IMG/VR virus record: IMGVR_UViG_3300011337_000358
Length of the DNA stretch: 64,000 nt
Direction: 5' to 3' (one strand)
DNA from: a virus
Taxonomy: Duplodnaviria > Heunggongvirae > Uroviricota > Caudoviricetes
The notes under the pieces were generated by a model. It did not search any database. It was not told where the DNA came from and was given only the letters and a program-made list of their open reading frames with translations. This document shows, in pieces, positions 12,154 through 28,458 of this stretch; the stretch's first letter is position 1; each line of letters opens with the position of its first letter. The translations under genes were made by a program, and so were the position numbers.

Positions 12154-12542
12154 TAGACTATATACATGGTGGCGAGTATCTTAATGTTGTTAGTAACAAA
12201 GGTGCTCAGCCTTATATCAATATGAGTAGTACTCAGCCCATGATTGGTGCATTGTCTTATGACCATAGTAGTCAACATATGAAAGTATATGATGGTAATG
12301 GGTGGATGACTATTGGCGGTGGCAGTGCTACTGTCAATCTAGCACCAAATGCTATCAATATTTTAAAGTGGGCTGAACAGAAAATGCTAGAAGAAGCCGA
12401 GCGCAACAAATTAGCAGAAACAACCCCCGCTATTAGAGATTTGATGGACCAGATAAAAGAAAAAGAAGAACAGATAAAAATGGTCATGACTTTAATTAAA
12501 AGTACTGGTAATGATGCAATTAAACCCTCAATGGTACCCTAA
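12150..12542 (+). CDS. Hypothetical protein with C-terminal coiled coil
   Basis: ORF with overlap coupling. Confidence 0.5.
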   Translation: MIDYIHGGEYLNVVSNKGAQPYINMSSTQPMIGALSYDHSSQHMKVYDGNGWMTIGGGSATVNLAPNAINILKWAEQKMLEEAERNKLAETTPAIRDLMDQIKEKEEQIKMVMTLIKSTGNDAIKPSMVP

Positions 12543-14095
12543 TGGAACAAGATAATCTATCAGCAAAACAAAACCCAGAGTGGGCATTGTTCTTACCCGC
12601 AGTTAGTAGTTTTTATATTAGTGGTTTGGGTAAGCAACGTAAAGGTGAGGAGTACTTTGATAAGGCTCGTATCCCTACTCAGTTCAACGGTGATGTTGAG
12701 AAATTAAATTTCTTAAACAGTAGTGAAGGTCTCTATTATTATAAATGGGGCTTGTACAGTGCTGGTCACGCTAACTTAGATACTACTAAAGACGATGCTA
12801 GTGAATCAATCATTAGAGAACGTGAAGAAGGTACATTTATGTTGGGTGACAGTGGTGGATTTCAGATTCTTAAAGGTCAATGGCCAGCAGACTGGAAAGA
12901 TCCTAACTGCCCACGTGCTATGATTAAGCGTAAAGCTGTGTTGAATTGGATGGATACATATATGGATTATGGTATGTGTTTAGATATCCCAAGTCAATCA
13001 CTAACAACGTTTGGCATGAAAGATAAGAATGGTAATAGTCTGCATGGTATCAGTACTATTGAAGAAGCTATTACTGCCACTCACATTAACAACGAATACT
13101 TTATTAAGAATCGTAATGGGAAATGTAAGTTCTTAAATGTACTTCAAGGTCGTAATCATGGTCAGTCGGAAGACTGGTACAATGAAATGAAGAAGTACTG
13201 TGATCCAAACGTATATCCGGACAATCATTTCAATGGCTGGGCATTCGGTGGTCAGAACAAGATTGATGTACACTTGATGTTAACACGTATGGTTGATATT
13301 ATCCATGATGGATTGTTGGTAGAAGGTAAACATGATTTGATTCATTGTTTGGGTACAAGTATCTTAGAGTATGCGGTATTGTTTACTGATATTCAAAAAG
13401 CTATACGTAAATATCATAACTCAAAACTTCAGATTACATTTGACTGTGCTAGTCCATTTTATAGTGCGGCTAAAGGATTAGCATATTTCAATACTAACAT
13501 TGAGCATAATAAAAAATGGTCATACAGTATGGAAAAGACTGCTGAAAAGAAAAGTTATGCTAATGATACACGTAAATACCGTGATGCTGTGTTAGCAGAA
13601 GGCATCCATAAACTCTTTACAGATAGTCCAGTTACTGATAAACTACTACTTAAGGACATGTGTTATCGTGGTCAAGGGTTCATAGGACAACATGGTAAAG
13701 AAACTAAAACTAGTTGGGATACATTAAGTTACACATTGATTCAAAGTCATAATGTTTGGATGCATATGAATGCAGTTCAAGAGGCTAATCGTCAATATGA
13801 AACAGGTATTACTCCTAAAATGCTTATTCATAAATTTGAAGGTAGTAAGTTTTTTGGTGAAATAGTTGATGAAATTTTCTCAAAGAAAACTAAACAAGAA
13901 GCTATTGACTTGATTGATTATCATCGTAGTTATTGGATGCAATTTCAATCAGGTAGTCAGGGTATTAGTGGTAAGCGTACAGTTAATGCTATGACAATGT
14001 TTGACCAATTATTTGAAGTAAATACAGATGAACCGGAAGTTGATGAAGTCATTGAGGACAGTGATGATGAAATTTTCAAAGTACTAGGAGAATAA
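12542..14095 (+). CDS. dpdA: DpdA-like tRNA-guanine transglycosylase (TGT) family protein; likely 7-deazaguanine DNA transglycosylase
   Basis: 'MLGDSGGFQILKG' is the TGT 'DSGGFQ' catalytic-Asp block. 'ITFDCASP' matches TGT 'MFDCV' (second catalytic Asp). No CxCxxC zinc site, as in phage/bacterial DpdA. Confidence 0.8.
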   Translation: MEQDNLSAKQNPEWALFLPAVSSFYISGLGKQRKGEEYFDKARIPTQFNGDVEKLNFLNSSEGLYYYKWGLYSAGHANLDTTKDDASESIIREREEGTFMLGDSGGFQILKGQWPADWKDPNCPRAMIKRKAVLNWMDTYMDYGMCLDIPSQSLTTFGMKDKNGNSLHGISTIEEAITATHINNEYFIKNRNGKCKFLNVLQGRNHGQSEDWYNEMKKYCDPNVYPDNHFNGWAFGGQNKIDVHLMLTRMVDIIHDGLLVEGKHDLIHCLGTSILEYAVLFTDIQKAIRKYHNSKLQITFDCASPFYSAAKGLAYFNTNIEHNKKWSYSMEKTAEKKSYANDTRKYRDAVLAEGIHKLFTDSPVTDKLLLKDMCYRGQGFIGQHGKETKTSWDTLSYTLIQSHNVWMHMNAVQEANRQYETGITPKMLIHKFEGSKFFGEIVDEIFSKKTKQEAIDLIDYHRSYWMQFQSGSQGISGKRTVNAMTMFDQLFEVNTDEPEVDEVIEDSDDEIFKVLGE

Positions 14096-14096
14096 T

Positions 14097-14306
14097 ATGC
14101 CATATAAAAGCCGTATTAAAACATTAGAAGAATCACATAGATTAGTAGAAAATCAACTTTTTCAATTAGAAAAATCAAATGGTGATCCTGAAAAAATTAA
14201 AAAGTTGAGAGAGGCTAAGGAAAAGTATTTCACTGAATTACGTGCAATGAATCGGGCTCAATGGGATCATGACCATGAAACTGTAGATTTGAACGATGAC
14301 CGATGA
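14097..14306 (+). CDS. Hypothetical small coiled-coil protein
   Basis: ORF. Confidence 0.45.
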   Translation: MPYKSRIKTLEESHRLVENQLFQLEKSNGDPEKIKKLREAKEKYFTELRAMNRAQWDHDHETVDLNDDR

Positions 14307-14871
14307 TATTAAATTAATTCCCAATATACTAAAACCAGAGGTAGAGTGGGATATTAATAAACGAGTTATTGTTATTGATAACGCAATTAGCCCGGATATG
14401 TGTGATAGTATTATTAATTTTGCAACTGATAGAGTAGCAAAAGGAGTAAACAAATATCCACATGTATTTGGTATTAGTTTTCATTCATGTCTACTTCAGT
14501 TAGAACATGAAGTTCATCAATTGTTGCAACCAATATGGCAACAATCAATTAATCAATTGGGATTTGATATTGATTTCGTTGAACCATATGAAGTTAAAAA
14601 GTATACTTCTAAAGATTTCTTTGGTAAACACGTAGATAATTACTACAGTTTGACCAAAGACATAGACAGAAAGATAACAATGAGTGTACAATTGACTGAC
14701 AAATCAGAATATACTGGTGGTGAGCTATTAGTGTTAGGTAGAGACATGGGTGCTAAGTCTAAAGGTAGCGTCACTGTGTTTCCTAGCATTTTTTCACATG
14801 AAGTAAAACCCATTACTTTTGGTACACGATGGTCATTAATAAGTTGGGCTTGGGGCCCTTATTGGAAATAA
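14296..14871 (+). CDS. 2OG-Fe(II) oxygenase (prolyl-4-hydroxylase-like fold)
   Basis: HxD 'GKHVDNYY', a second His in 'FSHEVKPI' and a 2OG-binding Arg in 'TRWSLISW'. 'GGELLV' is typical. Confidence 0.65.
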   Translation: MTDDIKLIPNILKPEVEWDINKRVIVIDNAISPDMCDSIINFATDRVAKGVNKYPHVFGISFHSCLLQLEHEVHQLLQPIWQQSINQLGFDIDFVEPYEVKKYTSKDFFGKHVDNYYSLTKDIDRKITMSVQLTDKSEYTGGELLVLGRDMGAKSKGSVTVFPSIFSHEVKPITFGTRWSLISWAWGPYWK

Positions 14872-14872
14872 C

Positions 14873-15325
14873 ATGGAACAACATATTCAAGCAGAAACAG
14901 AAAAACGAGTACGCATTAAGCATCATGCAAAGCGTATGATTTTCGTAACATTTCAAAAAGAGGGTATTCATATGTACCCGGCGGCGGCAACAGATCCAGC
15001 ACTCGCAACGGGTGATGAATATGATGTTCGCTTTTTAGGAACTCCACATCGTCACATCTTTCACTTTAACGTGGCGATTGAAGTATTTCACAACGACAGG
15101 GATATTGAATTCATTCAATTTAAACGCTGGTTAGAGAATCTCTATAAAGGCGGTACACTTGAATTGAATTACAAGAGTTGTGAAATGATTAGTGATGACC
15201 TCTATGAAGTTATTGCTACTCGCTATCCCGATCGTAACATTGAGATTACCGTCAGTGAAGATGGTGAGAACGGTGCTACGATTTATTACAACACAATTAG
15301 ACCTTATCTTTCAACCGCTATTTAA
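14873..15325 (+). CDS. Hypothetical protein
   Basis: ORF. Confidence 0.5.
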   Translation: MEQHIQAETEKRVRIKHHAKRMIFVTFQKEGIHMYPAAATDPALATGDEYDVRFLGTPHRHIFHFNVAIEVFHNDRDIEFIQFKRWLENLYKGGTLELNYKSCEMISDDLYEVIATRYPDRNIEITVSEDGENGATIYYNTIRPYLSTAI

Positions 15326-15337
15326 AGGATTATCAAA

Positions 15338-15544
15338 ATGGCAAAACCAACATTTCAAACTAACCCACGTGTTCATCAAATATTTGAGGACTTGGAAAAG
15401 TATCTTGAATTCTGTCAAGAGTATGGATATAAGTATAATGAGGCAGACCTCTATGACCAACGCAGTTATGTGTTTCGTCAGTTTGCAAAATGCATGACAG
15501 GTAAGCCTGCAAAAAATCAATGGACAGAACACTCACGTCCATGA
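15338..15544 (+). CDS. Hypothetical small protein
   Basis: ORF with RBS. Confidence 0.45.
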   Translation: MAKPTFQTNPRVHQIFEDLEKYLEFCQEYGYKYNEADLYDQRSYVFRQFAKCMTGKPAKNQWTEHSRP

Positions 15545-16293
15545 AGATAGTATTAGTAACTGGTGGATTTGATCCATTACACAGCGGTCATATTGAATAT
15601 TTCAAAGCCGCAAAACAACTCGGTGACAAGTTAGTTGTCGGGGTAAACAGTGATGCATGGTTGGCTCGTAAAAAGGGCCAACCTTTTATGCCTAGCATTG
15701 AGCGTATGTCAATAATTGAAAATTTAAAAATGGTAGATCATTGTGTTATCTTTAATGATGATGATGGTTCTAGTATTGAAGCTATCAATAATGTAAAGAT
15801 GATGTATCCTGATTCTGAAATCATCTTTGCTAATGGAGGGGATAGAACATCAGCCAACATTCCAGAAATGATCTTTGATGATGTAGAATTTGTTTTTGGT
15901 GTAGGTGGCGAGAATAAAATGAACAGTAGTTCATGGATACTACGTGAATGGAAACAACCTAAAACATTGCGGCAATGGGGTTATTATCGTATACTACATG
16001 ATGTGCCCGGGACTAAAGTAAAAGAACTAACAGTAGAATCTGGAAAGAGTTTGAGTTTACAACGACACAAACATAGAGCAGAATACTGGCATGTATCAGA
16101 GGGAAGATGTGCAGTAGAACAAAGAATGCCTAATGGCTATCAACTACCTACTCTAGAATTAGATACACTAAGTCAAATAGTTATTCCTATGAATGATTGG
16201 CATAGGCTATACAATCCGTTTGATGTCCCATGTAGAATTATTGAAGTTCAATATGGTACTATGTGCGAAGAAGAAGATATAGAACGCAAATGA
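15541..16293 (+). CDS. Bifunctional nucleotidyltransferase (RfaE-domain-II / TagD-like HIGH cytidylyl/adenylyltransferase) fused to a C-terminal cupin domain
   Basis: 'VLVTGGFDPLHSGHIEYF' is the HxGH nucleotidyltransferase signature (compare RfaE 'GCFDILHAGHVSYL'). The C-terminal 'QRHKHRAEYWHVSEG' is a cupin G(X)5HXH(X)3-4E(X)6G motif. Confidence 0.7.
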   Translation: MKIVLVTGGFDPLHSGHIEYFKAAKQLGDKLVVGVNSDAWLARKKGQPFMPSIERMSIIENLKMVDHCVIFNDDDGSSIEAINNVKMMYPDSEIIFANGGDRTSANIPEMIFDDVEFVFGVGGENKMNSSSWILREWKQPKTLRQWGYYRILHDVPGTKVKELTVESGKSLSLQRHKHRAEYWHVSEGRCAVEQRMPNGYQLPTLELDTLSQIVIPMNDWHRLYNPFDVPCRIIEVQYGTMCEEEDIERK

Positions 16294-17018: not shown

Positions 17019-18218
17019 ATGAAAACATTATATTATATGGGACTAGAACCCTACAAAGCACGTTACACTCTACAGTTACAAGAGTGGAATGAACGGGTCT
17101 TTAAACAACGTGGTATTAACTATGTCATTGTACCCGGTGAAACACTAACTAATGACCAAGCTATTGTAACTGGTCAAGTACTAGATGCACATGGTCGTAC
17201 ATACTTTGGTATGAGTCAACTTATGAATCTAGTTAAGATGATGAAGCAAGGTGAAGTAGGTGCAGGTGATATCGTATACTTTGAAGATATGTTTCAGCCG
17301 GGCATTGAGTCATTGCCATACATTATGAAACAGATTCCGATCACAAGTCGTCCTAAGATTTTTGTTCGCTGTTTAGCACAAAGTATTGACCCAGATGACT
17401 TTGTTCATGTCTGGGGTATGAGTGAATTCATGGGTCACTATGAGAAGATGGTTGATTCGTTTGTTGATGGTGTGCTTGCTAGTAACGAAGAAATGGTAAT
17501 GCACATGAAGATTGCGGGTTGGAAAGCTCCTATCTATAATATATCAGGTCTAGCATTTGGTAAAGATGAAGTTCGTAGTCGTATTAATAATAATATTAAA
17601 CCCTTTGATGAACGTAAAATGCGTATTGCTTTTAGTGCAAGATGGGACCAAGAGAAACAACCTGACTTCTACATGGATGTGATTGAAGAATTCTTTAATC
17701 GGTATGGTGAGAAGGATCGTCACGGTATATATCGTGGTGTAGAATTTTGTGTATTCAGTGGTAGCAAATTAAAAAGCAATAACGATAGTTATATGAAACG
17801 CACACACGACTTTCAAGGTCGTGGATTGTTGACAGTTTATGAAGACTTGGACAAGAATGCATATTATGAATTATTAAATGATACCAGAGTATTGTTTAAT
17901 TGTGCATTACAAGATTGGGTAAGTAATACAGTTAGTGAAGCAGATAGTTTGGGTTGTAATGTGTTGTATCCAGCATATCGCAGTTTTCCAGAAACGTTTG
18001 CAAACGACTATACAAGAATGTATGCGCCCTGGTCAGTTGAAGATGCGGCAATAAAGTTGTATAATATGTTACATCAGCCACATATAAATCAAGGAAAGAT
18101 TAGTGATTGGACTGATGGTACTATTGATAGAATCTGTGATATCTTAGAAGGTAAGGGACAACAATGGTTGCGTATGGACAAAGATTATCGCAAACATACT
18201 AGAGAAAATAAATACTAA
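17019..18218 (+). CDS. Hypothetical 399-aa protein; candidate (unsupported) glycosyltransferase by context and size
   Basis: Large ORF inside the sugar-metabolism cluster. No motif identified by eye. Confidence 0.5.
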   Translation: MKTLYYMGLEPYKARYTLQLQEWNERVFKQRGINYVIVPGETLTNDQAIVTGQVLDAHGRTYFGMSQLMNLVKMMKQGEVGAGDIVYFEDMFQPGIESLPYIMKQIPITSRPKIFVRCLAQSIDPDDFVHVWGMSEFMGHYEKMVDSFVDGVLASNEEMVMHMKIAGWKAPIYNISGLAFGKDEVRSRINNNIKPFDERKMRIAFSARWDQEKQPDFYMDVIEEFFNRYGEKDRHGIYRGVEFCVFSGSKLKSNNDSYMKRTHDFQGRGLLTVYEDLDKNAYYELLNDTRVLFNCALQDWVSNTVSEADSLGCNVLYPAYRSFPETFANDYTRMYAPWSVEDAAIKLYNMLHQPHINQGKISDWTDGTIDRICDILEGKGQQWLRMDKDYRKHTRENKY

Positions 18219-18230
18219 AAGGAGAAAATT

Positions 18231-18920
18231 ATGTTTGAAACAACTTATACAGATAATGTAAATTACCGTTCTGCTAGCGAAATTAACTCAGCAATGGGCC
18301 GTGTTTATGGTCACATGAGTCTAGCTGTCATTGTATCAATGTTAGTTAGCTATTTTGTAGGCTCTAGTCCAGAGTTACTACAATTCTTTTTTACAGGTGT
18401 ATTGAAATGGATTGTGATCTTTGCCCCATTAGCGGCAATATTTGGTGTTGCTATGGTCCTAGGTAACAACCCTAGTAAGGGCGTAGCACAACTATGTTTA
18501 CATGGATTTGCCGCACTAATGGGATTAAGTTTTGCTACAATCTTTGCTGTATTCAACATGGGTAGTATTGTAAGCTCATTTATGGGAGCAGCCATATTGT
18601 TTGGCGTTATGAGTGGCTATGGTTATTTTACTAAACAAAGTTTAGACAGTCTTGGCAAGTTTATGTTTGTTGGATTGATTGCAATAGTTATTGCCAGCAT
18701 TGTCAATATCTTTATCGGCAGTACCGTAATGCAAATGGTTATCAGTGCGTTGGCTATCATTATCTTTTTAGGATTGACTGCTTACGACACACAAAAGATT
18801 CGTGAAGAATTAAGTCTAGAAACCAGTGATAGTGCAGAAGTACGCGGTGCATTAACATTGTACATGGACTTCATTAATTTGTTTATTAACCTCTTACAAC
18901 TATTTGGTGATAGGAAATAA
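18231..18920 (+). CDS. Bax-inhibitor-1/YccA family membrane protein (FtsH modulator homolog)
   Basis: Seven-TM-like hydrophobic profile. C-terminal 'ALTLYMDFINLFINLLQLFG' matches the BI-1/YccA C-terminal signature. Strong RBS AAGGAGAAA. Confidence 0.7.
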   Translation: MFETTYTDNVNYRSASEINSAMGRVYGHMSLAVIVSMLVSYFVGSSPELLQFFFTGVLKWIVIFAPLAAIFGVAMVLGNNPSKGVAQLCLHGFAALMGLSFATIFAVFNMGSIVSSFMGAAILFGVMSGYGYFTKQSLDSLGKFMFVGLIAIVIASIVNIFIGSTVMQMVISALAIIIFLGLTAYDTQKIREELSLETSDSAEVRGALTLYMDFINLFINLLQLFGDRK

Positions 18921-18922
18921 TC

Positions 18923-19339
18923 ATGGCAACATGGATATTAAAAACACTGCACAAAAAGAGTGCATATGAAAGACAGCATTGGTACAAAGATGGTAAAGAA
19001 ATCATCCGTGAAGAAGGTTACCGTTGGGGCACATTTTACTGTGAAAGTGATGAGAAACCTGATATTGACCTAACTAATGATGATGGTTATGAAATTGGTC
19101 AAGATGAGTATGAGTGGGAGCTTGATAGCCTCGATGACGGTTGTTGGGCTGATTGGGAATTCCCCGATGACATGAGTGAAGAAGAACAAGAAGAAATTCA
19201 AAATGCTTGGGATGAAAATTATTTTGAAGGCATGGAAGAATTAGGTTGGAGTTGCGATGATACAGATTATATCTTGCAAGGTCCGTTAGAATTATCAGAT
19301 GAAGATGGTAATGTAGTAGGTTCTGGTGATACAGAATAA
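18923..19339 (+). CDS. Acidic Trp-rich protein, 'WEF.DD' family member 1 (DNA-mimic candidate)
   Basis: 'EYEWELDSLDDGCWADWEFPDDMSEEEQEEI' is paralogous to 19735-20220 and 50887-52254. Confidence 0.55.
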   Translation: MATWILKTLHKKSAYERQHWYKDGKEIIREEGYRWGTFYCESDEKPDIDLTNDDGYEIGQDEYEWELDSLDDGCWADWEFPDDMSEEEQEEIQNAWDENYFEGMEELGWSCDDTDYILQGPLELSDEDGNVVGSGDTE

Positions 19340-20304: not shown

Positions 20305-20985
20305 ATGAGTTATAATAAAACAAAAACAGATCCAGAGTTGGGTCAACGAGTACACGAACATCTAGTTAAGATGGGTGTTGAAACTCCCACTAATCCAAAC
20401 AACTATGACCGTAAAGAAAAGATAGATCATATTGAAGCGCATTTTACACACATTATGCGTATCTTGGGTCTTGACTTAACAGACGATAGTTTGATTGAAA
20501 CCCCTAAGCGTGTTGCCAAGATGTATGTCAACGAAATCTTTTGGGGACTTGACTATGACGCATTCCCTAAATGTACAACAGTTGACAACAAGATGCAATA
20601 CAACGAAATGGTTGTAGAGCGTAATGTTAACGTTCAATCTAACTGCGAACATCATTTTGTAGTCATCGATGGACTAGCTACTGTAGCTTATGTCCCTAAA
20701 CAAAAAGTTCTAGGGCTTAGTAAGATAAACCGTATCGTAGAATATTTTAGCAAAAGGCCTCAAATCCAAGAGAGGTTAACAGAGCAAATTTTTCACACCT
20801 TACAGTTCATCCTTGAAACAGAAGATGTTGCAGTTATGATTGATGCACAACACTATTGTGTAAAATCACGTGGTGTAGAAGATACGGGATCTAGTACTGT
20901 TACTTGTCGTTTAGGTGGCGGTTTCAAATCAGATCCTGCGGCAAGACAAGAGTTTTTACAGATTGCTAACAAAGGTTGCAAATGA
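20305..20985 (+). CDS. folE: GTP cyclohydrolase I (FolE)
   Basis: 'QSNCEHHFVVIDG' matches FolE 'CEHHLVPF'. 'GLSKINRIVEYFSKRPQIQERLTEQI' matches the FolE C-terminal block. Confidence 0.9.
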   Translation: MSYNKTKTDPELGQRVHEHLVKMGVETPTNPNNYDRKEKIDHIEAHFTHIMRILGLDLTDDSLIETPKRVAKMYVNEIFWGLDYDAFPKCTTVDNKMQYNEMVVERNVNVQSNCEHHFVVIDGLATVAYVPKQKVLGLSKINRIVEYFSKRPQIQERLTEQIFHTLQFILETEDVAVMIDAQHYCVKSRGVEDTGSSTVTCRLGGGFKSDPAARQEFLQIANKGCK

Positions 20986-21522: not shown

Positions 21523-21745
21523 ACAAATGGACTACAATGCAGTACATCATCAAATCTATATGAGTGGTGTAGAATTACATAGTAATTACAATGATGGTTA
21601 CAATCAGTTTGAAATCAAAAAAGATTTACATCGTATCAAGTGGTTGTTAGATGAGATTATGGCTGACAGCCCTACATTTGCAGGGGAAGACGAATTCTTA
21701 AAAGAACATGAACAAACTAAGATGTGGAGAACTCTTTCAAAATGA
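21509..21745 (+). CDS. Hypothetical small protein
   Basis: ORF. Confidence 0.45.
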
Positions 21746-22215
21746 TTTTCAATCACATTAAAAAACTCAAACAAGATGGAAAGAAGATAGGTATTACTTT
21801 TAGTACATTCGACCTACTTCACGCAGGTCATATTGCTATGTTAAGTGAAGCAAAAAATCATTGTGATTATCTTATTTGTGGATTACAAACTGACCCCACG
21901 ATTGATCGACCTGAAACAAAGAATAAACCCATTCAAAGTATCGTAGAACGACAGATTCAACTTGCGGCTTGCCGCTATGTCGATGAAGTTGTTGTTTATC
22001 AAACTGAACAGGACCTTATTGACTTGTTACTTATTCTACCACTAGATGTTCGCATTTTGGGTGTAGAGTATGCAGATAAAGACTTTACCGGAAGATATGA
22101 AGGTAGTGAGCGTGGCATTGAAATTGTATTCAATGGTCGTGACCACAGTTTCAGCAGTAGTAGTTTACGAAAACGGGTAGCTGATGCCCAGATTATTAAC
22201 GTTCTTAATAAATAA
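21742..22215 (+). CDS. Cytidylyltransferase-like nucleotidyltransferase (TagD / glycerol-3-phosphate cytidylyltransferase-like)
   Basis: 'GITFSTFDLLHAGHIAMLSEAK' matches TagD 'VITYGTFDLLHWGHIKLLERAK'. Confidence 0.75.
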   Translation: MIFNHIKKLKQDGKKIGITFSTFDLLHAGHIAMLSEAKNHCDYLICGLQTDPTIDRPETKNKPIQSIVERQIQLAACRYVDEVVVYQTEQDLIDLLLILPLDVRILGVEYADKDFTGRYEGSERGIEIVFNGRDHSFSSSSLRKRVADAQIINVLNK

Positions 22216-22271: not shown

Positions 22272-22289
22272 TCAACATAGGAGAAATTC

Positions 22290-22772
22290 ATGGCAAACAA
22301 AAAATTCTTTTCAACAAAGACATACAGACAAATAGGTCCTGTCGCTTATCGTCAATGGCGTGCTGACAGTCATTGTAACTTAATTCATGGCTATGCTATG
22401 AGTTTTCACTTTGAGTTTGAGGCTGATACGTTAGACGCACGTAACTGGGTAACTGACTTCGGTGGATTACGACCTCTCAAAGATAAACTAGAAGAATGGT
22501 TTGACCATACATTACTAGTTGCACAAGATGACCCAATGCGTGAACATCTATTAGAACTAGGTCGTTTAAAGCTAGCTAAAATTACAGAAGTAGAACGTAC
22601 TGGGTGTGAAGGTATTTCTGACTTTTTATATGAATACATTAACACAATTTTTTTGCCTAACTGCGGTAGTGAAGAAGCTAAACGTGTATGGTGCTGTAGA
22701 GTAGAAGTCCGCGAGACTGATAGTAACATGGCAGGACGTAGTGGTCATAGGGAAGATAGAGAGTTTGAATAA
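22290..22772 (+). CDS. queD: QueD / 6-pyruvoyl-tetrahydropterin synthase family protein (CPH4 synthase-like), variant metal site
   Basis: 'HCNLIHGYAMSFHFEFE' matches QueD 'CGRLHGHSFMVRLE' (C-x3-H-G-[HY]). Own promoter TTTACA-16-TATAAT at 22244-22271. Confidence 0.7.
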   Translation: MANKKFFSTKTYRQIGPVAYRQWRADSHCNLIHGYAMSFHFEFEADTLDARNWVTDFGGLRPLKDKLEEWFDHTLLVAQDDPMREHLLELGRLKLAKITEVERTGCEGISDFLYEYINTIFLPNCGSEEAKRVWCCRVEVRETDSNMAGRSGHREDREFE

Positions 22773-23395
22773 TGTTAGAAACAATTTGCGATACATTAGT
22801 TGAAGCATATAAACGCAACTGGATTACCAGTCGTGATGGCAATGTAAGTATTCGTCATCATGATCGGGATCATTTTTACATCACACCCAGTGGTGTGCGT
22901 AAGCAGACAATGCAACCGGATCAGTTTAAGAAGATTCGTATTGTTGGTAGTATGTTATGGGAAGAGCAACCATACACTGATATCAGTGCTAATCTTAAAC
23001 CGTCAGGTGAGCTACCACTACACCTCGGACTACAGCGAAAAATGGGACAGCACAATAATGATGTTAGAGTAGTAGTACATTTACATCCCACATACTGTGT
23101 TGCCGCTATGCACCGCGGCATTGAGTTGAGTAGTCTGGCTAATGACTTTCCTGAACTCAGTCGCTATACTAGCGTGGCACCCAATGTGGGTGATGTGCCT
23201 CCTATTAGCCAGGAACTTGCAGACCGCTGTCATGAAAATTTGGGACTAGATAAGAATGGTACTATTGCTTATGACATTGTAGGTATCAAAGGTCACGGTG
23301 TGGTCGCTATAGATACTAGCCCATGGAGGGCTTTTGAACATATTGAACGATTAGAACATATTTGTCAAATCGTATTAGCATCAGGGAAATATTAA
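22772..23395 (+). CDS. Class II aldolase/adducin-family protein (fuculose-1-phosphate aldolase-like)
   Basis: 'GELPLHLGL' and 'VVHLHPTYCVAAM' match the class II aldolase metal-binding blocks. Confidence 0.55.
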   Translation: MLETICDTLVEAYKRNWITSRDGNVSIRHHDRDHFYITPSGVRKQTMQPDQFKKIRIVGSMLWEEQPYTDISANLKPSGELPLHLGLQRKMGQHNNDVRVVVHLHPTYCVAAMHRGIELSSLANDFPELSRYTSVAPNVGDVPPISQELADRCHENLGLDKNGTIAYDIVGIKGHGVVAIDTSPWRAFEHIERLEHICQIVLASGKY

Positions 23396-23396
23396 A

Positions 23397-23810
23397 ATGT
23401 TAGACTGTATAATTATAGGTGATAGCATTGCAGTTGGTACAGCTATGGCTCGTCCAGAGTGTGTAAGTTATTCAAAAGGCGGCTGGAACAGTTGGCAATG
23501 GAACAAGGATTACTTAGCCAAAGCCTCTGCTCAACCTGCTCAAACTATAATCATTAGTCTTGGAGCCAACGACCACAAGGGTGTTAAGACTGAGCTTGAG
23601 TTACGTAAAATGCGAGAAGCAGTTAAGGGCCAGCGTGTGTTTTGGATCGATCCAGGTCAAGACCGTAAACCTATTCCACACGATGCAATTATTCGCATTG
23701 CTAAAGAATATGGTGATACAGTATTGCCTAGGCCAAAGAATCATATGAGTGCTGACGGAGTACATCCAACTGGTCGAGGTTATAAGATTTTAGGAGAGAT
23801 GGCAAAATGA
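23397..23810 (+). CDS. SGNH/GDSL-family hydrolase (short)
   Basis: Block I 'IIGDSIAVG', block III 'GANDH' and block V 'DGVHPT'. Confidence 0.6.
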   Translation: MLDCIIIGDSIAVGTAMARPECVSYSKGGWNSWQWNKDYLAKASAQPAQTIIISLGANDHKGVKTELELRKMREAVKGQRVFWIDPGQDRKPIPHDAIIRIAKEYGDTVLPRPKNHMSADGVHPTGRGYKILGEMAK

Positions 23811-24442
23811 GTTATATTGTAGGATCATTACCTCCTATTAAGTGTTGGATAAAACGTGAATTTCTTTACAACTTTGAAAAAGGTCACGGAGAATTAGAAC
23901 CTGCCATATGGGTAAGTCTTAAAGCATTACGTGGACAAGTGTTTCGTATTGAATCATTATTACCCAATTACGGAGCACTCTACGATAAACTGCCCATTCA
24001 TGCCTATGTATGGCAAGACAACTACACAGGCAATCTACCTATAGATACTTTACAACTCTGGGACTGCATGGGTTATCGCTTTACTATCATTGAAAAAATA
24101 GGTTTACGTAATCTAGGCGTTAAGTTCTTGGGCAAAGATAAAGAATGGCATCACGGAACTTATTTATTTACAGTAGATTTTTGTGCTGATGGAATGGATG
24201 TAGATACAGGTTTTACTGAAGTAGCAGAAGAACACAAGTCGTTTAATTTTATTAGATTAGAAAATGGACAGTTTGCTTGTCAACCCAATAATCGATGTTT
24301 GTGGTACGACCAAAGTTTGATTTCAGGTACAGTGAAATTTCCAGACTTTAAAGCCGCACAGACCATATTTACAGTAGATGGTACTCGCAAGTGGAGTGCA
24401 GGAGATGATTGGTTTTATTCTATTGAGGAAAAAAATGAATAG
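23807..24442 (+). CDS. Hypothetical protein
   Basis: ORF. Confidence 0.5.
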   Translation: MSYIVGSLPPIKCWIKREFLYNFEKGHGELEPAIWVSLKALRGQVFRIESLLPNYGALYDKLPIHAYVWQDNYTGNLPIDTLQLWDCMGYRFTIIEKIGLRNLGVKFLGKDKEWHHGTYLFTVDFCADGMDVDTGFTEVAEEHKSFNFIRLENGQFACQPNNRCLWYDQSLISGTVKFPDFKAAQTIFTVDGTRKWSAGDDWFYSIEEKNE

Positions 24443-24626: not shown

Positions 24627-24629
24627 AAT

Positions 24630-24827
24630 ATGAACAAAAAAATTACAGAACTATGGGAACAGGCCGCTCAACGAGATGACTTACTAGACGAAAAACGGTA
24701 TGAGCATTTTGCTGAATTATTAATTAGAGATTGTGCAAAACAAGTTAATCATCTGGCTAAACAAGGTGGCGGAACTTGGGGCGAAGTCATTCTAGAAAAC
24801 TACAATATAAGTGTATATAAAAAATGA
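24630..24827 (+). CDS. Hypothetical small protein
   Basis: ORF. Confidence 0.4.
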   Translation: MNKKITELWEQAAQRDDLLDEKRYEHFAELLIRDCAKQVNHLAKQGGGTWGEVILENYNISVYKK

Positions 24828-25672
24828 GTCATTTAAAAGTATCAGAATTATTTTACAGTATCCAGGGAGAAGGTCGCTATATGGGAGTGCCAAGTATTTT
24901 CCTAAGAACATATGGATGCAATTTTACATGCGGTGGCTTCGGTATGCCTAAGGGAGAAATGAGTAATGAGAGAGATGTTATCGCAATTAAAGCAGAAGAT
25001 TATACAGATTATAAATCCTTACCACTTGTCAGTACTGGATGTGATAGTTACGCATCTTGGGACCCTCGCTTTAAACATCTTAGTCCTGTTATCTCTACCG
25101 ATTCTATTGCTGACAGTATTATGGATATACTTCCTCACAAGCGTTGGATGGATGAACATCTTGTTATTACAGGTGGTGAACCTTTGCTTGGATGGCAAAG
25201 AGCGTATCCAGACTTACTTTCAAACGAGAAAATGAGAGCATTGAAAGAGATTACATTTGAAACTAATGGCACACAAGAACTAAGTAAAGACCTTACTAAC
25301 TATCTTCATCAATGGAAGATCAGCCGTGAAAATAACGCACTTACATTCAGTGTGAGTCCTAAACTTAGTATCAGCGGTGAGAAGTGGGAAGAAGCAATAT
25401 GTCCACAAGTTGTTCGTCAATATGAAAGTGTTGGCTTTGTATATCTTAAATTTGTTATTGCTACTAAAGAAGATGCGATTGAGGCAGATAAAGCAGTTAA
25501 AGAATTTCGTACAGCTGGATTCAGAGGTCCAATATACTTCATGCCATGCGGTGGTGTAGAAAGTATCTATAATTTAAATGCTAGAAATGTTGCTATTGAA
25601 GCAATGAATCGTGGCTATCGCTATAGTGATAGATTACAGGTGCCTCTATTTAAAAATGAATGGGGGACATAA
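24824..25672 (+). CDS. queE: QueE-family radical SAM 7-carboxy-7-deazaguanine synthase
   Basis: 'ELFYSIQGEGRYMGVPSIFLRTYGCN' matches QueE 'EMFQTLQGEGYFTGVPAIFIRLQGC'. The Cys cluster 'GCNFTCGG' is atypical. Confidence 0.8.
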   Translation: MSHLKVSELFYSIQGEGRYMGVPSIFLRTYGCNFTCGGFGMPKGEMSNERDVIAIKAEDYTDYKSLPLVSTGCDSYASWDPRFKHLSPVISTDSIADSIMDILPHKRWMDEHLVITGGEPLLGWQRAYPDLLSNEKMRALKEITFETNGTQELSKDLTNYLHQWKISRENNALTFSVSPKLSISGEKWEEAICPQVVRQYESVGFVYLKFVIATKEDAIEADKAVKEFRTAGFRGPIYFMPCGGVESIYNLNARNVAIEAMNRGYRYSDRLQVPLFKNEWGT

Positions 25673-25875: not shown

Positions 25876-25876
25876 T

Positions 25877-26101
25877 ATGCCATTAGATCAAGTCCAATCA
25901 TATGATTACTTTTATGACAAATTGATAGGTACTGAACTTAAGTTTACTTGGCTACCCCAAACTTGTGACATATCAGGTAAGCGTATTTGGTTAAAGTATG
26001 GGTATAGGATGACTAGGATGATTACTGGACCGGGCACACCTGTCTTTGAGTATAGATGGCACGATAAGAATACCCATATTATATGGAAACTAAAAAGGTA
26101 A
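25877..26101 (+). CDS. Hypothetical small protein
   Basis: ORF. Confidence 0.4.
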   Translation: MPLDQVQSYDYFYDKLIGTELKFTWLPQTCDISGKRIWLKYGYRMTRMITGPGTPVFEYRWHDKNTHIIWKLKR

Positions 26102-26105
26102 ATAT

Positions 26106-26285
26106 ATGTATGAATTAAGATATCTTGTCCGAAACGGTTGGGATGGACCTGAACAAGTGTTACAATATAGAACTCAACATGAAGTAACAGACTATAGTGG
26201 CACAGATCCTAAAACAGGTGGATTCATTAGAAAAATAGAATGGACTGAATGGAAGTATGTCCCCACCGTAGATGAAACAAAATGA
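26106..26285 (+). CDS. Hypothetical small protein (59 aa)
   Basis: ORF coupled to neighbours. Confidence 0.3.
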   Translation: MYELRYLVRNGWDGPEQVLQYRTQHEVTDYSGTDPKTGGFIRKIEWTEWKYVPTVDETK

Positions 26286-27631
26286 AATTATACGATAAAC
26301 GAATTGCTTTTTTGATTAGTGACCAACATTTTATACCGCATGGTGGTATAGGTAGTTTTGCTAAAGGCTTTACTGAGATGTGTGGTCGTATCGGGTGGAA
26401 GGTTGATATTATATTAGACAAAGCACCTACTAATTTATTCAGTGATTTAATTATTAGTCTAGGTGCTAACATTGTTTACCCTGATGAACCACTACGATAC
26501 AGTGACCATACTGCTACGTTTGCATTTAGCGATACTATCAACTTTGAAAAGATTATCAACTTCCGTAAAGCAATATTAAAAGCATTTGAAACAAATGTAT
26601 ACGACATGATTGTGTGTAATACACAAGAGGCAATGACTGCTAGTTATGCCATGACGGTTAACAAGTATATACCTGTTGTATTCTATACTCATTTGCACAG
26701 TATGATTTTTCGTGAAAGTCAAGGTAGTGATGTATTTTTAGACAGCTATCACAATTTCTATAACAAACATATGGAGTTTACTGATATCATTATAGGCACA
26801 CAAAGTCAAAAGAACATTGACGAACTAACTAAGTTTGGTGCAACTAACTGTCAGTTATTGCGTATGCCAATGAGTGAACGTGGTCTATTAGAACGATACA
26901 ATGGATCTAAGAAGGGTGTACTATTCATTGGACGATGGGAAGAAGGTAAGAACCCTGAAGCATATATTCGTGTAATGAAAGAATGTAAATTACCATGTAA
27001 GGTAATGACAAATAGTAACGGTGCAAAAAAGTTTGAGAAGGCATTCAGTGACGCAGGTATTACTGATTATGAAATCAAAGCCGGTATTACTGGACAAGAG
27101 AAAGTAGATTTTGTTCGTGGTGCTAATGTATTCTTTATGCCCAGCCTTCGTGAAAACTATCCATTTGCATTTTTAGAATGTCTTGGTCATATGCCTTGTG
27201 TTGTGCTTGATAATCAAGATTGGTCAGACAACTTTGAGCGAGAATACTATCATCAAGTTTCAATTGGTTCAGCAGCCGACATGATTAAAACATTGTATGG
27301 CACAAATCAATTATCTTCAGTATTAGACTATGTGAAACAATTAGATGATGAGGTAGCTCAAGGTTGGATTACATTCTTAGATAATTTTGCAGGCAAGCGT
27401 AGCAACACAAATGCCGCAAAGATTAATACATATGATACAGTTAAGTATAGTGATTATATCAAGGATTTAAATCGTACACATTTAGCACGTGAGGACTTTG
27501 AAAGCGTACTCGCAAACAAATATAAGTTTTTAAATGTCTGCTACACAGATAGTGACACTTACCTAAGCAAAGACCCAACATATAAACCAGTCGAGGAAGA
27601 AACAGCATTAAGTCTGTTTGAAGGATTATGA
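26282..27631 (+). CDS. GT-B glycosyltransferase, family 4-like
   Basis: N-terminal 'ISDQHFIPHGGIGSF' (GT4 N-domain) and C-terminal 'FMPSLRENYPFAFLECLGHMPCVV' (E-x7-E motif). Confidence 0.7.
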   Translation: MKLYDKRIAFLISDQHFIPHGGIGSFAKGFTEMCGRIGWKVDIILDKAPTNLFSDLIISLGANIVYPDEPLRYSDHTATFAFSDTINFEKIINFRKAILKAFETNVYDMIVCNTQEAMTASYAMTVNKYIPVVFYTHLHSMIFRESQGSDVFLDSYHNFYNKHMEFTDIIIGTQSQKNIDELTKFGATNCQLLRMPMSERGLLERYNGSKKGVLFIGRWEEGKNPEAYIRVMKECKLPCKVMTNSNGAKKFEKAFSDAGITDYEIKAGITGQEKVDFVRGANVFFMPSLRENYPFAFLECLGHMPCVVLDNQDWSDNFEREYYHQVSIGSAADMIKTLYGTNQLSSVLDYVKQLDDEVAQGWITFLDNFAGKRSNTNAAKINTYDTVKYSDYIKDLNRTHLAREDFESVLANKYKFLNVCYTDSDTYLSKDPTYKPVEEETALSLFEGL

Positions 27632-28458
27632 AAAAAGTTTTAATTACAGGTAACTCAGGTTACATTGGCAGTCATCTAAGTAAGATGTTAATGGATACAA
27701 TGAAATATGAAGTTCATGGATTAGATATCCGTGACCCGCAATATGCATTGAATAGATTTTATCGTCAAGATATCAATAGACAATTTTCATTAGATGAAGA
27801 ATTTGATGCAGTCATTCACTTAGCCGCATTAGTTAATGTAGGTGAAAGTGAACAGATACCCATTCAATATTATATCACTAACTTAAATGGCACAATGAAT
27901 GTCATTAACAAAGTAAAGACTAAAAACTTTATATTTGCAAGTACGGGTGCCGCAGTTGGTTGCGAAAGTGCTTATGGTATCAGTAAACGTGCCGCAGAAG
28001 ATGTAGTCAAAGAATACTGCACACATCACAATAAAAAAGATTATACTATCTTTAGATTTTATAATGTGATTGGTACTACCGTTGTTCCACCTACAAATCC
28101 AGATGGATTAATGTATAACTTAATGAAAGCACGTGAAACAGGTGAGTTTACTATCTTCGGTAATGACTATGACGTTAGTGATGACGGTACATGTGTGCGT
28201 GATTATGTACATGTGAATGAAATTTGTGACTCATTAGCACAGGCTATCGAAAAGCCTAGTAACCAAATTGAATCATTGGGTCACGGAGTGGGATGGACAG
28301 TTAAAGAGATTGTCGATGAGTTTCAAAAAGTCAATCACGTTGACTTTGAAGTAAAATACGGCCCAAGAAGAAAGGGTGATCTTGCTAGTTCTGTACTAGA
28401 AGATGTTTCACCCTATATGCGTAATCTATATACTATGGATGAGTTGCTTAAGGTTTAA
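27628..28458 (+). CDS. NAD-dependent epimerase/dehydratase (extended SDR; UDP-sugar 4-epimerase-like)
   Basis: Rossmann 'ITGNSGYIGSHL' and catalytic 'YGISK' (YxxxK). Confidence 0.75.
   Translation: MKKVLITGNSGYIGSHLSKMLMDTMKYEVHGLDIRDPQYALNRFYRQDINRQFSLDEEFDAVIHLAALVNVGESEQIPIQYYITNLNGTMNVINKVKTKNFIFASTGAAVGCESAYGISKRAAEDVVKEYCTHHNKKDYTIFRFYNVIGTTVVPPTNPDGLMYNLMKARETGEFTIFGNDYDVSDDGTCVRDYVHVNEICDSLAQAIEKPSNQIESLGHGVGWTVKEIVDEFQKVNHVDFEVKYGPRRKGDLASSVLEDVSPYMRNLYTMDELLKV

Follow-up and report, generated by a model that had tools for sequence, protein, structure and literature searches.

A predicted phage module for 7-deazaguanine DNA modification with linked sugar genes

Described systems and the locus

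The FolE, QueD and QueE enzyme families convert GTP to 7-carboxy-7-deazaguanine (CDG), and this chemistry is established. In Cellulophaga phage phiST, a cluster encoding FolE, QueD, QueE, DpdL and DpdA3, without QueC, brings about the replacement of all dG by 2'-deoxy-7-deazaguanine (dDG) (Cui et al., 2023, PMC10516641). Decarboxylation of CDG by DpdL was proposed in the same study, in which dpdA and dpdL of the T4-like phage ACP17 were also named and no dDG was obtained when dpdL and dpdA of ACP17 or phiST were placed in E. coli (PMC10516641). The DNA of the Pseudomonas jumbo phage PA5oct (Wroclawvirus) resists several restriction enzymes whose sites contain G, and it is attacked by a nuclease that acted on modified-G phages (END nuclease preprint, PMC12191111). 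A modified-G system was predicted for this phage, of which the preprint names only QueE and PTPS (PMC12191111), while its transglycosylase, DpdL and glycosyltransferase (GT) are annotated as hypothetical. We found no published report of a sugar attached to 7-deazaguanine in phage DNA.

Here we describe a locus (12542-28458) within a stretch of 64,000 nucleotides of viral DNA (the window), which is part of a probably much larger genome, where genes for a TGT-fold protein, FolE, QueD and a QueE-like radical SAM enzyme are interspersed with sugar genes; every gene listed in an earlier note on this DNA was recovered, all on the + strand. The cluster is probably a phage module of the QueC-less, DpdL-containing type that swaps guanine of the phage's own DNA for 7-deazaguanine, with a sugar step included. 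QueC-less FolE/QueD/QueE/DpdL/DpdA clusters are known, and this locus differs from that of phiST by its linked sugar genes and by an unnamed DpdA-like subfamily. Presence counts out of 29 or 16 given below refer to 29 related loci spanning the cluster or to 16 related loci reaching the second GT gene.

The pathway to the base and the transglycosylase

In the proposed route, FolE, QueD and QueE would convert GTP to CDG, a DpdL homolog would decarboxylate CDG to 7-deazaguanine, as Cui et al. (2023) suggested for DpdL, and the TGT-fold protein would exchange G in DNA for 7-deazaguanine after replication. The genes assigned to these steps, and a small neighbor, are as follows.

20305..20985, + strand: GTP cyclohydrolase I (FolE); PF01227 1.9e-61, NF006824 330 bits vs cutoff 202
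22290..22772, + strand: QueD (CPH4 synthase), phage-type variant; PF01242 56.7 bits vs cutoff 22.4, phrog_2389 2.4e-41
24824..25672, + strand: QueE-like radical SAM enzyme (CDG synthase); phrog_2076 4.7e-53
14873..15325, + strand: DpdL homolog, QueD-like T-fold, proposed CDG decarboxylase; motif and homology
15338..15544, + strand: conserved small ORF (68 aa) directly 3' of dpdL; 29/29 related spanning loci
12542..14095, + strand: TGT-fold protein, predicted DNA guanine/7-deazaguanine transglycosylase; 517 aa, unnamed DpdA-like subfamily

FolE and QueD, both called in the earlier note, exceed their model cutoffs. The QueD site, C-NLI-H-G-Y, had been regarded as a variant, but C-x3-H-G-Y is common to the QueD proteins of phiST, ACP17 (70% identical to the window QueD) and BUCT-ZZ01, and since it is shared with phiST it is an ordinary phage QueD form. 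The QueE-like call stands by phrog_2076, by a list of top five NCBIfam matches that are all QueE models (about 1e-12) and by 31-47% identity to the annotated QueE of PA5oct, BUCT-ZZ01 and the loci L085 and L087, but the NCBIfam matches all lie under equivalog cutoffs and the Pfam Radical_SAM match is sub-threshold.

QueC (PF06508) has no match anywhere in the 64 kb window, as the earlier note had read, and none was found across about 2.5 Mb of related loci, L087 excepted; a QueC gene may still lie farther off in the probably much larger genome. The only PP-loop protein of the window (7709-8323) scores 126 bits with the TilS N-domain model (cutoff 93.6) and shows no QueC signal, again in line with the first reading. 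A class-I GATase-like gene (4904-5479) and this PP-loop ATPase gene lie upstream of the cluster.

From the missing QueC, the earlier note had suggested that the inserted base may be at CDG level or a new derivative, a suggestion that overlooked the DpdL homolog two genes downstream of dpdA. This protein carries L-GTP-H-R-H-I-F, which fits the LxxxHRHxF motif of DpdL, matches phrog_17812 (2.5e-35) and is 68% identical to its homolog in Phosso, 57% to ACP17 DpdL, 57% to EST35_0318 of PA5oct and 35% to phiST DpdL (E 6e-9); the gene is kept in 29/29 related loci spanning the cluster. With this gene the cluster falls into the known QueC-less class of phiST, where dDG is made (PMC10516641), rather than at the CDG level. 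The window shares with phiST the FolE, the C-x3-H-G-Y QueD, the QueE, the DpdL motif, the lack of QueC and the position of the cluster near a DNA polymerase gene. As the partner pathway is without QueC, the base would not be preQ0, unlike that of the bacterial DpdA system, and we lean slightly towards an inserted base at the 7-deazaguanine level, formed via DpdL.

It is improbable, by comparison, that the QueC-less pathway ends at CDG, that dCDG or a direct derivative (a glycosyl ester or an amide) enters the DNA and that DpdL has some other role. Such an outcome would have a parallel in the dCDG of Sulfolobus virus STSV-2 DNA, the carboxylate is a possible chemical handle, decarboxylation by DpdL is a proposal for which the heterologous tests failed, and the GATase-like and PP-loop genes upstream could be counted in its favor; however, phiST shares this gene set and CDG was sought there but not detected, the score of the PP-loop protein exceeds the curated TilS cutoff, and sugar esters are labile.

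The TGT-fold protein was described in the earlier note as having both catalytic Asp blocks and no zinc site, and direct reading confirms GDSGGFQ (D103), ITFDCASP (D301) and the absence of CxCxxC...H downstream of D301. In the profile check suggested for it, the protein matches neither PF01702 nor any other entry of Pfam, PHROG, NCBIfam or the PDB sequences, but fold and profile comparisons place it in the TGT superfamily. Among solved structures, that of DpdA, which inserts preQ0 into DNA, is its nearest match, ahead of Tgt, and the catalytic motifs align with those of E. coli Tgt and of ACP17-type DpdA. From bacterial DpdA (the enzyme that inserts preQ0 in the dpd system, PDB 7ui4) and phage DpdA1/DpdA2 the window protein differs by a sequence identity of 12%, by about 100 extra C-terminal residues and by the lack of a PF01702 match and of the CxCxxC motif. 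DpdA3 of phiST is much shorter (259 vs 517 aa; hhalign probability only 61%), and the T4-like ACP17, BUCT-ZZ01 and BUDD have DpdA proteins of a separate subfamily (416-437 aa; hhalign probability 97%, 20% identity). PA5oct encodes an ortholog of the TGT-like protein (35% identical across 80% of the length) together with DpdL, the GT-B partner discussed below, QueE and the same gene order PolB, structural gene, TGT-like gene. In PA5oct, L085, L090 and the window the TGT-like family is accompanied by DpdL and the GT-B gene, whereas its companion in L087 is QueC; from these pairings the family appears to work with differing deazaguanine pathways.

Modification of DNA with 7-deazaguanine via the TGT-like protein is very probable. 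That the enzyme acts on tRNA instead, or that the product of the cluster is a free metabolite, a pterin or 7-deazapurine with a sugar attached, is a far-fetched reading: DpdA and not Tgt is the best structural match, the window was searched for tRNA genes and none was found, the TGT-like gene adjoins PolB in the replication block in several clades, QueE and DpdL would have no part in pterin glycoside synthesis, and PA5oct DNA shows G-specific restriction resistance.

Sugar genes that travel with the module

A sugar contribution had been suggested in the earlier note, and comparative genomics upholds the link to sugars, but most of the genes that were stressed are variable among relatives (2OG oxygenase 5/29, aldolase 6/29, SGNH hydrolase 0/29, cupin fusion 8/29). 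The conserved sugar genes are others, listed here with two small ORFs that accompany them.

17019..18218, + strand: GT-B glycosyltransferase-like protein, conserved DpdL partner; model fold and linkage
26282..27631, + strand: second glycosyltransferase-like protein (GT1/GT4-type); Glyco_trans_1_4 and Glycos_transf_1 at E 5e-4, below cutoffs
21724..22215, + strand: small cytidylyl/adenylyltransferase-family enzyme (HldE domain II / TagD-like); PF01467 1.8e-12, TIGR02199 5e-23 (below cutoff)
27628..28458, + strand: extended-SDR sugar-nucleotide epimerase, GalE-like; PF01370 4.6e-32, TIGR01179 2.7e-46 (below cutoff)
25877..26285, + strand: pair of conserved small ORFs (74 and 59 aa) separating queE from the second GT gene; 16/16 and 15/16 related loci

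The GT-B protein, which the earlier note had passed over, is supported computationally in its fold by a structure model of low confidence (pLDDT 63), and the Pfam GT matches of both GT-like proteins are sub-threshold; the second, previously assigned to GT4, is GT-like with only GT1-family matches of this kind. The window GT-B protein is homologous to the GT of PA5oct, ACP17 and BUDD, with its closest cultured homolog in BUCT-ZZ01 (63%), and its gene adjoins dpdL or dpdA in PA5oct, ACP17, L085, L090, Phosso, BUCT-ZZ01 and BUDD. The T4-like ACP17, BUCT-ZZ01 and Xanthomonas BUDD/X1 resemble the window in carrying the DpdL and GT-B pair beside dpdA and queE. Among 80 viral contigs picked by the GT-B gene alone, DpdL lies within 1.2 kb in 78 (median gap 252 bp), and 69 also have the TGT-like gene. 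The dpdA-dpdL pair of BUCT-ZZ01, whose DpdA is of the other subfamily, has homologs of the two window GTs as its immediate neighbors, beside folE, queD and queE. Comparative genomics gives the idea of a sugar link strong support.

The second GT is kept in 16/16 related loci reaching that far and was found in 0/80 second-clade loci. Of 50,697 phage records, only 3 have a full-length homolog, in each case together with DpdL and the GT-B gene; the BUCT-ZZ01 copy, between folE and dpdA, is 44% identical over 95% of the length. The small nucleotidyltransferase, presumed to make the NDP-activated donor, is present in 29/29 related loci. Homologs occur in 37/80 second-clade loci (58-67% identity to the best-matching query, be it the small or the cupin-fused window enzyme or that of BUDD), usually a short way upstream of the gene for the TGT-like protein, and the BUDD enzyme is encoded 8 kb from dpdA. 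In 45/80 second-clade loci the TGT-like gene has an SDR epimerase-like gene at its side, and PA5oct has one such gene (EST35_0320). In the second clade, nucleotidyltransferase and epimerase genes are found immediately upstream of the TGT-like gene. Apart from this SDR fragment, the 25 kb examined of PA5oct contain no homolog of the second GT, the small nucleotidyltransferase or the epimerase. These three genes are recurrent with the module, yet not universal. Purine phosphoribosyltransferase genes in BUCT-ZZ01 and, as a purine phosphoribosyltransferase-like gene, in PA5oct set both clusters apart from the window, where the family has no match.

Both GT-like proteins, the small nucleotidyltransferase and the GalE-like epimerase would belong to the same module, the most likely outcome, going by linkage, being the transfer of one or two NDP-activated sugar (or polyol-phosphate) units onto deazaguanine, either as the free base or as the base already in DNA. 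As GT genes co-travel with the module in many unrelated phages, attachment of a sugar to the base looks probable enough to be considered; judged by gene linkage, we regard such decoration of 7-deazaguanine as plausible, at slightly less than even chances.

Plain dDG of the phiST type is an unlikely alternative, in which the GTs, the nucleotidyltransferase and the epimerase would have another task, such as glycosylation of virion proteins, of host envelope glycans or of a different DNA base, and the sugar genes would be merely co-housed in an early or replication-phase gene block. The phiST cluster differs from that of the window in having MazG and an AAA_18 ATPase and in lacking the GT-B partner, second GT, nucleotidyltransferase and epimerase; as phiST reaches 100% dDG with DpdL and without such a GT, the GT is dispensable for dDG as such. 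Several window sugar genes are demonstrably strain-variable, large aquatic phages commonly carry auxiliary sugar genes, and C7 of 7-deazaguanine offers no handle for attaching a sugar. Co-housing fits poorly, however, with a GT-B family that is almost never away from DpdL, with an adjacency that recurs in ACP17, BUCT-ZZ01 and BUDD despite their different DpdA subfamily, and with a second GT confined to DpdL-positive phages.

For a sugar on the base, 7-deazaguanine has no obvious acceptor group at C7, and the only precedent known to us concerns free 7-deazaguanine bases that are glycosylated at N2 (huimycin, dapiramicin). Mannosyl- and galactosyl-queuosine of eukaryotic tRNA are glycosylated 7-deazaguanines too. 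These cases are alike in that glycosyltransferases can decorate 7-deazaguanine scaffolds, but the products are preQ0- or queuosine-derived secondary metabolites or tRNA nucleosides and not DNA bases. PF12038, which we take to be the QTMAN N-terminal domain (DUF3524), was not among the Pfam matches found. The T4 alpha- and beta-glucosyltransferases are not the closest GT-B match and use a pyrimidine hydroxymethyl group (5-hydroxymethylcytosine in DNA) as acceptor; no hmC pathway was seen in the window.

Strain-variable genes within the cluster

The remaining genes lie outside the core, and most of them are strain-variable insertions.

14296..14871, + strand: 2OG-Fe(II) oxygenase; PF13640 1.9e-12
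15520..16293, + strand: nucleotidyltransferase fused to a mannose-6-P-isomerase-type cupin; PF01467 + PF01050
16263..17018, + strand: 251-aa ORF unique to the window; no Pfam, PHROG or NCBIfam match, 0/80 related loci
18231..18920, + strand: Bax1-I/YccA-type membrane protein; PF01027 5.5e-53, 3/29 relatives
22772-23395, + strand: class II aldolase; PF00596 4e-30
23397-23810, + strand: SGNH-like hydrolase; borderline GDSL match
23807-24442, + strand: phrog_3704 protein; phrog_3704 5e-75, 5/29 relatives

The annotations given earlier to the oxygenase, the aldolase, the epimerase and the two nucleotidyltransferases, one of them cupin-fused, agree with their Pfam families; the SGNH hydrolase is a borderline case, scoring 32.5 bits where the cutoff is 32.9. 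The 2OG oxygenase of the relatives is 42-56% identical to that of the window and sometimes differs in position. The Bax1-I/YccA-type protein is probably unrelated to the module, and the aldolase, SGNH-like and phrog_3704 genes form one variable block (22772..24442, + strand).

The TGT-like protein and its genomic setting

The product of 12542-14095 (517 aa) has the TIM-barrel fold of TGT enzymes and carries the motifs GDSGGFQ and TFDCASP. It was recognised solely by a fold search and by profile-profile comparisons, sequence-only searches having failed: there was no match to PF01702 or any other Pfam family at E ≤ 0.01, none in PHROGs, in NCBIfam or, by phmmer, among PDB sequences, and a 54-sequence profile of the family found no match in the PDB either. 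In hhalign the family matched E. coli Tgt at 90% probability, with the FDC nucleophile, the substrate Asp and the DSGGFQ, QG and GG motifs all brought into line (paired as GDSGGFQ/TDSGGFQ, LD/FDE, LQG/IQG, GWAFGG/GYAVGG and TFDCASP/MFDCVMP). Invariant in an alignment of 54 homologs (26-40% identity) are three aspartates, D103, D148 and D301, together with S73, S104, G106, P150 and H268; in the Z. mobilis enzyme the catalytic and substrate aspartates are D102, D156 and D280, in DSGGFQ, xD and FDC contexts, respectively. On direct reading, C303 and C374 are the only cysteines after D301, and the CxCxxC...H zinc site is absent. Comparison with the phage DpdA of the ACP17, BUCT-ZZ01 and BUDD type gave a probability of 97.3%, and that with DpdA3 of phage phiST was weak (61%). 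The protein is a TGT-superfamily enzyme, structurally nearest to DpdA, and by its sequence it appears to fit no recognisable DpdA subfamily (those with names being bDpdA and DpdA1-4).

Relatives amount to 835 clusters (at 50% identity) among 1.84 billion cluster representatives and to more than 6,600 proteins in a search of 5.8 billion, and none of the 120 listed of the latter carries a Pfam domain. In a tblastn search of 50,697 phage genomes the only matches were PA5oct-like phages, Phosso and one Vibrio phage. Because this family is very large and unannotated, DpdA screens based on the Pfam TGT domain would miss many modified phages.

The gene lies a short way downstream of the DNA polymerase gene in the window clade (80 loci related to the window), in PA5oct and in a second large metagenomic clade, from which 80 viral contigs were collected with the PA5oct-type glycosyltransferase (GT) as bait. 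It co-localises with deazaguanine synthesis genes in the window, in PA5oct, in the related loci L085, L087 and L090 and in 69 of the 80 second-clade loci, its partners being DpdL, QueE and FolE in PA5oct, L085 and L090, and QueC, FolE and QueE, with DpdL absent, in L087. The latter is a distant relative (its TGT-like protein is 34% identical), in which an inositol-3-phosphate synthase (L087:8452-9585; TIGR03450 7e-110, below cutoff) is encoded between the TGT-like and QueC genes and hints at further decoration chemistry attached to the family. Two other members (L086 and L089, 26-37% identical) are found beside integrase genes on small contigs, with no deazaguanine synthesis genes nearby, which suggests temperate elements depending on host-made bases.

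The DNA of PA5oct shows G-specific restriction resistance, and END nucleases, whose sole targets are hypermodified phages, also restrict the phage; END-Mag, one of those acting on PA5oct, affected only phages with modified G (PMC12191111). The resistance is indirect evidence for an exchange of guanine in DNA for a 7-deazaguanine base. The same study noted QueE and PTPS and named no transglycosylase (PMC12191111). EST35_0316, the ortholog of the TGT-like protein annotated as hypothetical in PA5oct, is the obvious candidate, which gives the PA5oct-type jumbo phages, themselves candidates for phage therapy, a candidate transglycosylase. A role in tRNA or small-molecule chemistry, as an alternative to DNA modification, is unlikely because of the DpdA-like structure, the position in the replication block and the PA5oct restriction data.

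A DpdL homolog and predicted base synthesis without QueC

Every gene listed in the earlier note was found in the window. FolE (20305-20985) scores above curated cutoffs, and so does the QueD/PTPS-family protein (22290-22772) with PF01242, supported by a match to the phage QueD PHROG (2e-41); against TIGR03367 the latter reaches 33.5 bits (cutoff 89), and its motif is CxxxHGY rather than CxxxHGH. This motif had been regarded as a variant, but it is equally present in the QueD of ACP17, BUCT-ZZ01 and phiST, the last being a phage that produces 2'-deoxy-7-deazaguanine (dDG). For the predicted QueE (24824-25672), the full-length match to the "QueE-like" phrog_2076 (4.7e-53) agrees with the call, whereas the top NCBIfam matches, five QueE models at about 1e-12, are all far below their equivalog cutoffs. 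The reported absence of QueC was borne out: no window ORF of 90 aa or more matched PF06508, tblastn with the E. coli and L087 proteins in the window and 174 related loci returned nothing except L087 itself, and a scan of viral contigs found no relatives of the L087 QueC. Likewise, no QueC was found in about half of the BUCT-ZZ01 genome or in any of the 80 second-clade contigs.

The sole PP-loop protein of the window (7709-8323, +) is indeed TilS-like (TIGR02432, 126 bits, cutoff 93.6), a stand-alone TilS N-terminal domain of 204 aa without the C-terminal tRNA-binding domains, and in roughly 50 related viral contigs its gene is conserved in this place, ahead of the TGT-like gene by about 4.4 kb, yet the window lacks tRNA genes. 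A class-I glutamine amidotransferase/gamma-glutamyl hydrolase-like protein (4904-5479, +; Peptidase_C26 1.3e-16) is encoded 2 kb upstream of it, its nearest NCBIfam model being gamma-glutamyl-CDP-amidate hydrolase, below cutoff. The possibility that these two proteins substitute for QueC was rejected as the main reading because the PP-loop protein exceeds the curated TilS N-domain cutoff; activation of a carboxylate such as that of 7-carboxy-7-deazaguanine (CDG) by the PP-loop protein is conceivable but unsupported.

Two genes after the TGT-like gene, and overlooked in the earlier note, is a DpdL homolog of 150 aa (14873-15325), in which the sequence LGTPHRHIFHF fits LxxxHRHxF, in place of CxxxHGH. 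LxxxHRHxF is the DpdL signature according to Cui et al. 2023, and DpdL is a QueD-like T-fold protein proposed to decarboxylate CDG to 7-deazaguanine (PMC10516641). The window protein aligns with DpdL of phiST (35% identity, E 6e-9), ACP17 (57%), BUCT-ZZ01 and BUDD, is 57% identical to EST35_0318 of PA5oct and 68% to a Phosso protein, and co-occurs with FolE, QueD, QueE and the DpdA-like gene, without QueC. Phage phiST encodes FolE, QueD, QueE, DpdL and DpdA3 and no QueC, and its dG is wholly replaced by dDG, CDG being undetected (PMC10516641). The earlier note had taken the missing QueC to point to a CDG-level product; with DpdL present, the QueC-less state is expected from the pathway described for phiST and is therefore no sign of such a product, which would require that DpdL does not act as a decarboxylase. 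The biosynthetic core is of a known kind, that is phiST-type, QueC-less and with DpdL.

Conserved and accessory sugar genes

The gene at 17019-18218, also overlooked previously, encodes a protein of 399 aa with no family match: it passes no curated GT family model and has no Pfam match. A weak structural model supports a GT-B fold of two Rossmann domains, and the E/D-x7-E motif for donor binding, near the C-terminus, is conserved. The homologs in PA5oct, ACP17 and L085 match Glycos_transf_1 at E 2.5e-4 to 0.05, below cutoff, some database members of the family carry PF00534 or PF13524, and two phage records label the homolog a glycosyltransferase. Between the window protein and the PA5oct/ACP17-type GT, hhalign gave 99.5% probability (E 9e-23), a distant but clear homology, in a run without shared sequences and after removal from the alignment of P0271, apparently a member of the other of the two GT families compared. 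A likeness to the tRNA-queuosine mannosyltransferase QTMAN/GTDC1, suggested by the motifs PHR..(E/D)K(Q/D)P and PL.P..L.Y.E, was dropped, as PF12038, the Pfam domain corresponding to QTMAN/GTDC1, was absent from the Pfam matches at E ≤ 1.

Homologs of this GT are directly beside dpdL or dpdA in PA5oct (EST35_0317), ACP17 (ASD50404), BUDD, L085 and L090. The linkage was quantified in 80 viral contigs, picked with the PA5oct-type GT alone from at least 590 such contigs: DpdL is encoded within 1.2 kb of the GT in 78 of them, with a median gap of 252 bp, and in the remaining two the GT is near the contig end. The same contigs carry the TGT-like gene (69), a purine-type phosphoribosyltransferase (64), FolE (55), QueE (47), an SDR epimerase-like gene (45) and a nucleotidyltransferase (37; 58-67% identical to the best query, be it the small enzyme of the window, the cupin-fused one or that of BUDD), usually in the order PolB, nucleotidyltransferase, epimerase, TGT-like, DpdL, GT-B, phosphoribosyltransferase, FolE, QueE. 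The T4-like cyanophage BUCT-ZZ01 has, contiguously, QueE, the phosphoribosyltransferase, one ORF, QueD, FolE, a homolog of the second GT of the window (26282-27631; 44% identity), an ACP17-type DpdA, DpdL and the GT-B homolog (63%). Of 50,697 phage records, the only ones with a full-length homolog of the second GT are BUCT-ZZ01, BUDD and X1, and all three belong to the 28 DpdL-positive records. DpdL has a glycosyltransferase as its near-obligate neighbour, and the association persists across phage type (jumbo or T4-like), gene order and DpdA subfamily, the pattern that a shared pathway predicts. According to the main rival explanation the product is plain dDG and the sugar genes are unrelated to it; it draws on phiST, where dDG needs no GT, yet it leaves the near-obligate adjacency of GT and DpdL unexplained.

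The dpdL and dpdA genes of ACP17 gave no dDG when expressed in E. coli, and Cui et al. suspected missing enzymes (PMC10516641). As the GT gene of ACP17 is exactly between dpdA and dpdL, its absence could explain the failed expression, which is suggestive, nothing more.

The purine-type phosphoribosyltransferase, absent from the window, lies beside queE in PA5oct, BUCT-ZZ01, L085 and 64 of the 80 second-clade loci, and could serve either in the salvage of guanine released by transglycosylation or in deazaguanine nucleotide synthesis. Examples from related loci are:

L085:5962-6489, purine-type phosphoribosyltransferase, beside queE
L001:15946-16380, purine-type phosphoribosyltransferase, beside queE
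L091:9093-9554, purine-type phosphoribosyltransferase, beside queE

Conservation within the window clade was judged in 80 loci with a TGT-like protein 84-97% identical to that of the window, 29 of which span the TGT-like gene to QueE. DpdL, a 68-aa ORF, FolE, the small nucleotidyltransferase (21724-22215) and QueD are present in 29/29, the GT-B gene in 27/29, and the second GT and the epimerase (27628-28458) in all 16 loci that extend further. Among the sugar and decoration genes named in the earlier note, the two nucleotidyltransferases, the class II aldolase, the GalE-like SDR epimerase and the 2OG oxygenase were confirmed, whereas the SGNH call is borderline and "GT4" relies on sub-threshold matches. 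The genes it had offered as evidence of decoration are flexible insertions, and the conserved sugar genes are other ones. The remaining genes of the cluster are much rarer in the 29 loci: the 2OG oxygenase is present in 5, the cupin-fused nucleotidyltransferase in 8, the aldolase in 6, the phrog_3704 protein in 5 and a Bax1-I protein in 3, and none has the SGNH-like gene or the 251-aa ORF. The last two (23397-23810 and 16263-17018, both +; the 251-aa ORF has a GTG start and overlaps the end of the cupin gene) are missing from all 80 related loci, and are either recent insertions or, in the case of 16263-17018, perhaps not a real gene.

Other variable genes of the cluster are the following:

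18231-18920 (+), Bax inhibitor-1/YccA-type multi-pass membrane protein (PF01027 5.5e-53), mid-cluster
18923-19339 and 19735-20220 (+), two very acidic paralogous ORFs with about 26% mutual identity and no family match
23807-24442 (+), protein of 211 aa matching phrog_3704 ("ferredoxin", 5e-75), with no Pfam or NCBIfam match

The first is a mobile accessory gene, as only 3 of the 29 related loci carry it; the acidic pair, between the membrane protein and folE, is variably present in relatives, and the phrog_3704 protein, where it occurs (5/29), is encoded between queD and queE.

The proposed modification and its phage

FolE, QueD and QueE convert GTP to CDG, as is established for these families. 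DpdL would turn CDG into 7-deazaguanine, as proposed in the literature and in keeping with the present findings, and the TGT-like protein would then exchange G in replicated phage DNA for this base, releasing guanine that the phosphoribosyltransferase of the relatives could salvage. From linkage, the small nucleotidyltransferase and the GalE-like epimerase may supply an NDP-activated donor, which the GT-B enzyme, with the second GT where present, may transfer onto the deazaguanine, before or after its insertion. 7-Deazaguanine has no handle at C7 for sugar attachment; glycosylated 7-deazaguanine bases occur in huimycin and dapiramicin, whose N2-glycosylation is the only such precedent known to us.

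We therefore put forward, as a tentative reading that we hold to be possible rather than probable, that the phages with this module (the window clade, PA5oct-like jumbo phages, ACP17, BUCT-ZZ01 and BUDD) replace G in their DNA with a glycosylated 7-deazaguanine, bearing a mono- or disaccharide or a polyol-phosphate, by means of an unnamed DpdA subfamily and a dedicated GT-B enzyme, itself obligately partnered with DpdL; the strain-variable genes within the cluster (cupin fusion, aldolase, SGNH hydrolase and 2OG oxygenase) would serve to vary the decoration in response to the pressure that modification-dependent nucleases exert. Compared with the literature searched, the transglycosylase subfamily, its tie to PA5oct-type phages and the conserved GT partner with the recurring nucleotidyltransferase and epimerase genes appear to be new. 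Modification with 7-deazaguanines is a major route by which phages escape restriction and CRISPR, and eight such derivatives are known in DNA (PMC10516641), none of them sugar-bearing. No report of a glycosylated 7-deazaguanine in DNA was found in the literature search. The near-obligate GT beside DpdL predicts a new class of hypermodified purine. No sugar-bearing purine in DNA is known to us, and a glycosylated 7-deazaguanine in phage DNA would be the first example.

Judged by gene order and by the polymerase, which is 45% identical, the window has its nearest cultured relative in the Pseudomonas jumbo phage PA5oct. Megablast of the 16-kb region against 50,697 deposited phage genomes found no close relative, and close relatives are abundant in metagenomes, on contigs of up to about 350 kb. 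The window (GC about 37%) has dense ORFs, mainly on the + strand, and no tRNA genes in its 64 kb. It encodes a family B DNA polymerase, a 5'-3' exonuclease, an ATP-dependent DNA ligase and UvdE, as well as ClpX, ClpP, ClpS, Hsp20, superoxide dismutase and a ferritin-like protein, a content usual for virulent phages of very large size. The proteostasis genes are grouped on the + strand (ClpX 55790-56995, Hsp20 57320-57772, ClpS 57833-58138 and ClpP 61210-61797), with a SprT-like protein among them (59176-59685, +). Near the start of the window, a Twitch-domain radical SAM protein (1398-2675, +; NF033640 3.9e-90, above cutoff) adjoins a ferritin/Dps-like gene (965-1405), and 3918-4907 (+) encodes a homolog of the TctC-family periplasmic binding proteins of tripartite tricarboxylate transporters, with a signal-peptide-like N-terminus.
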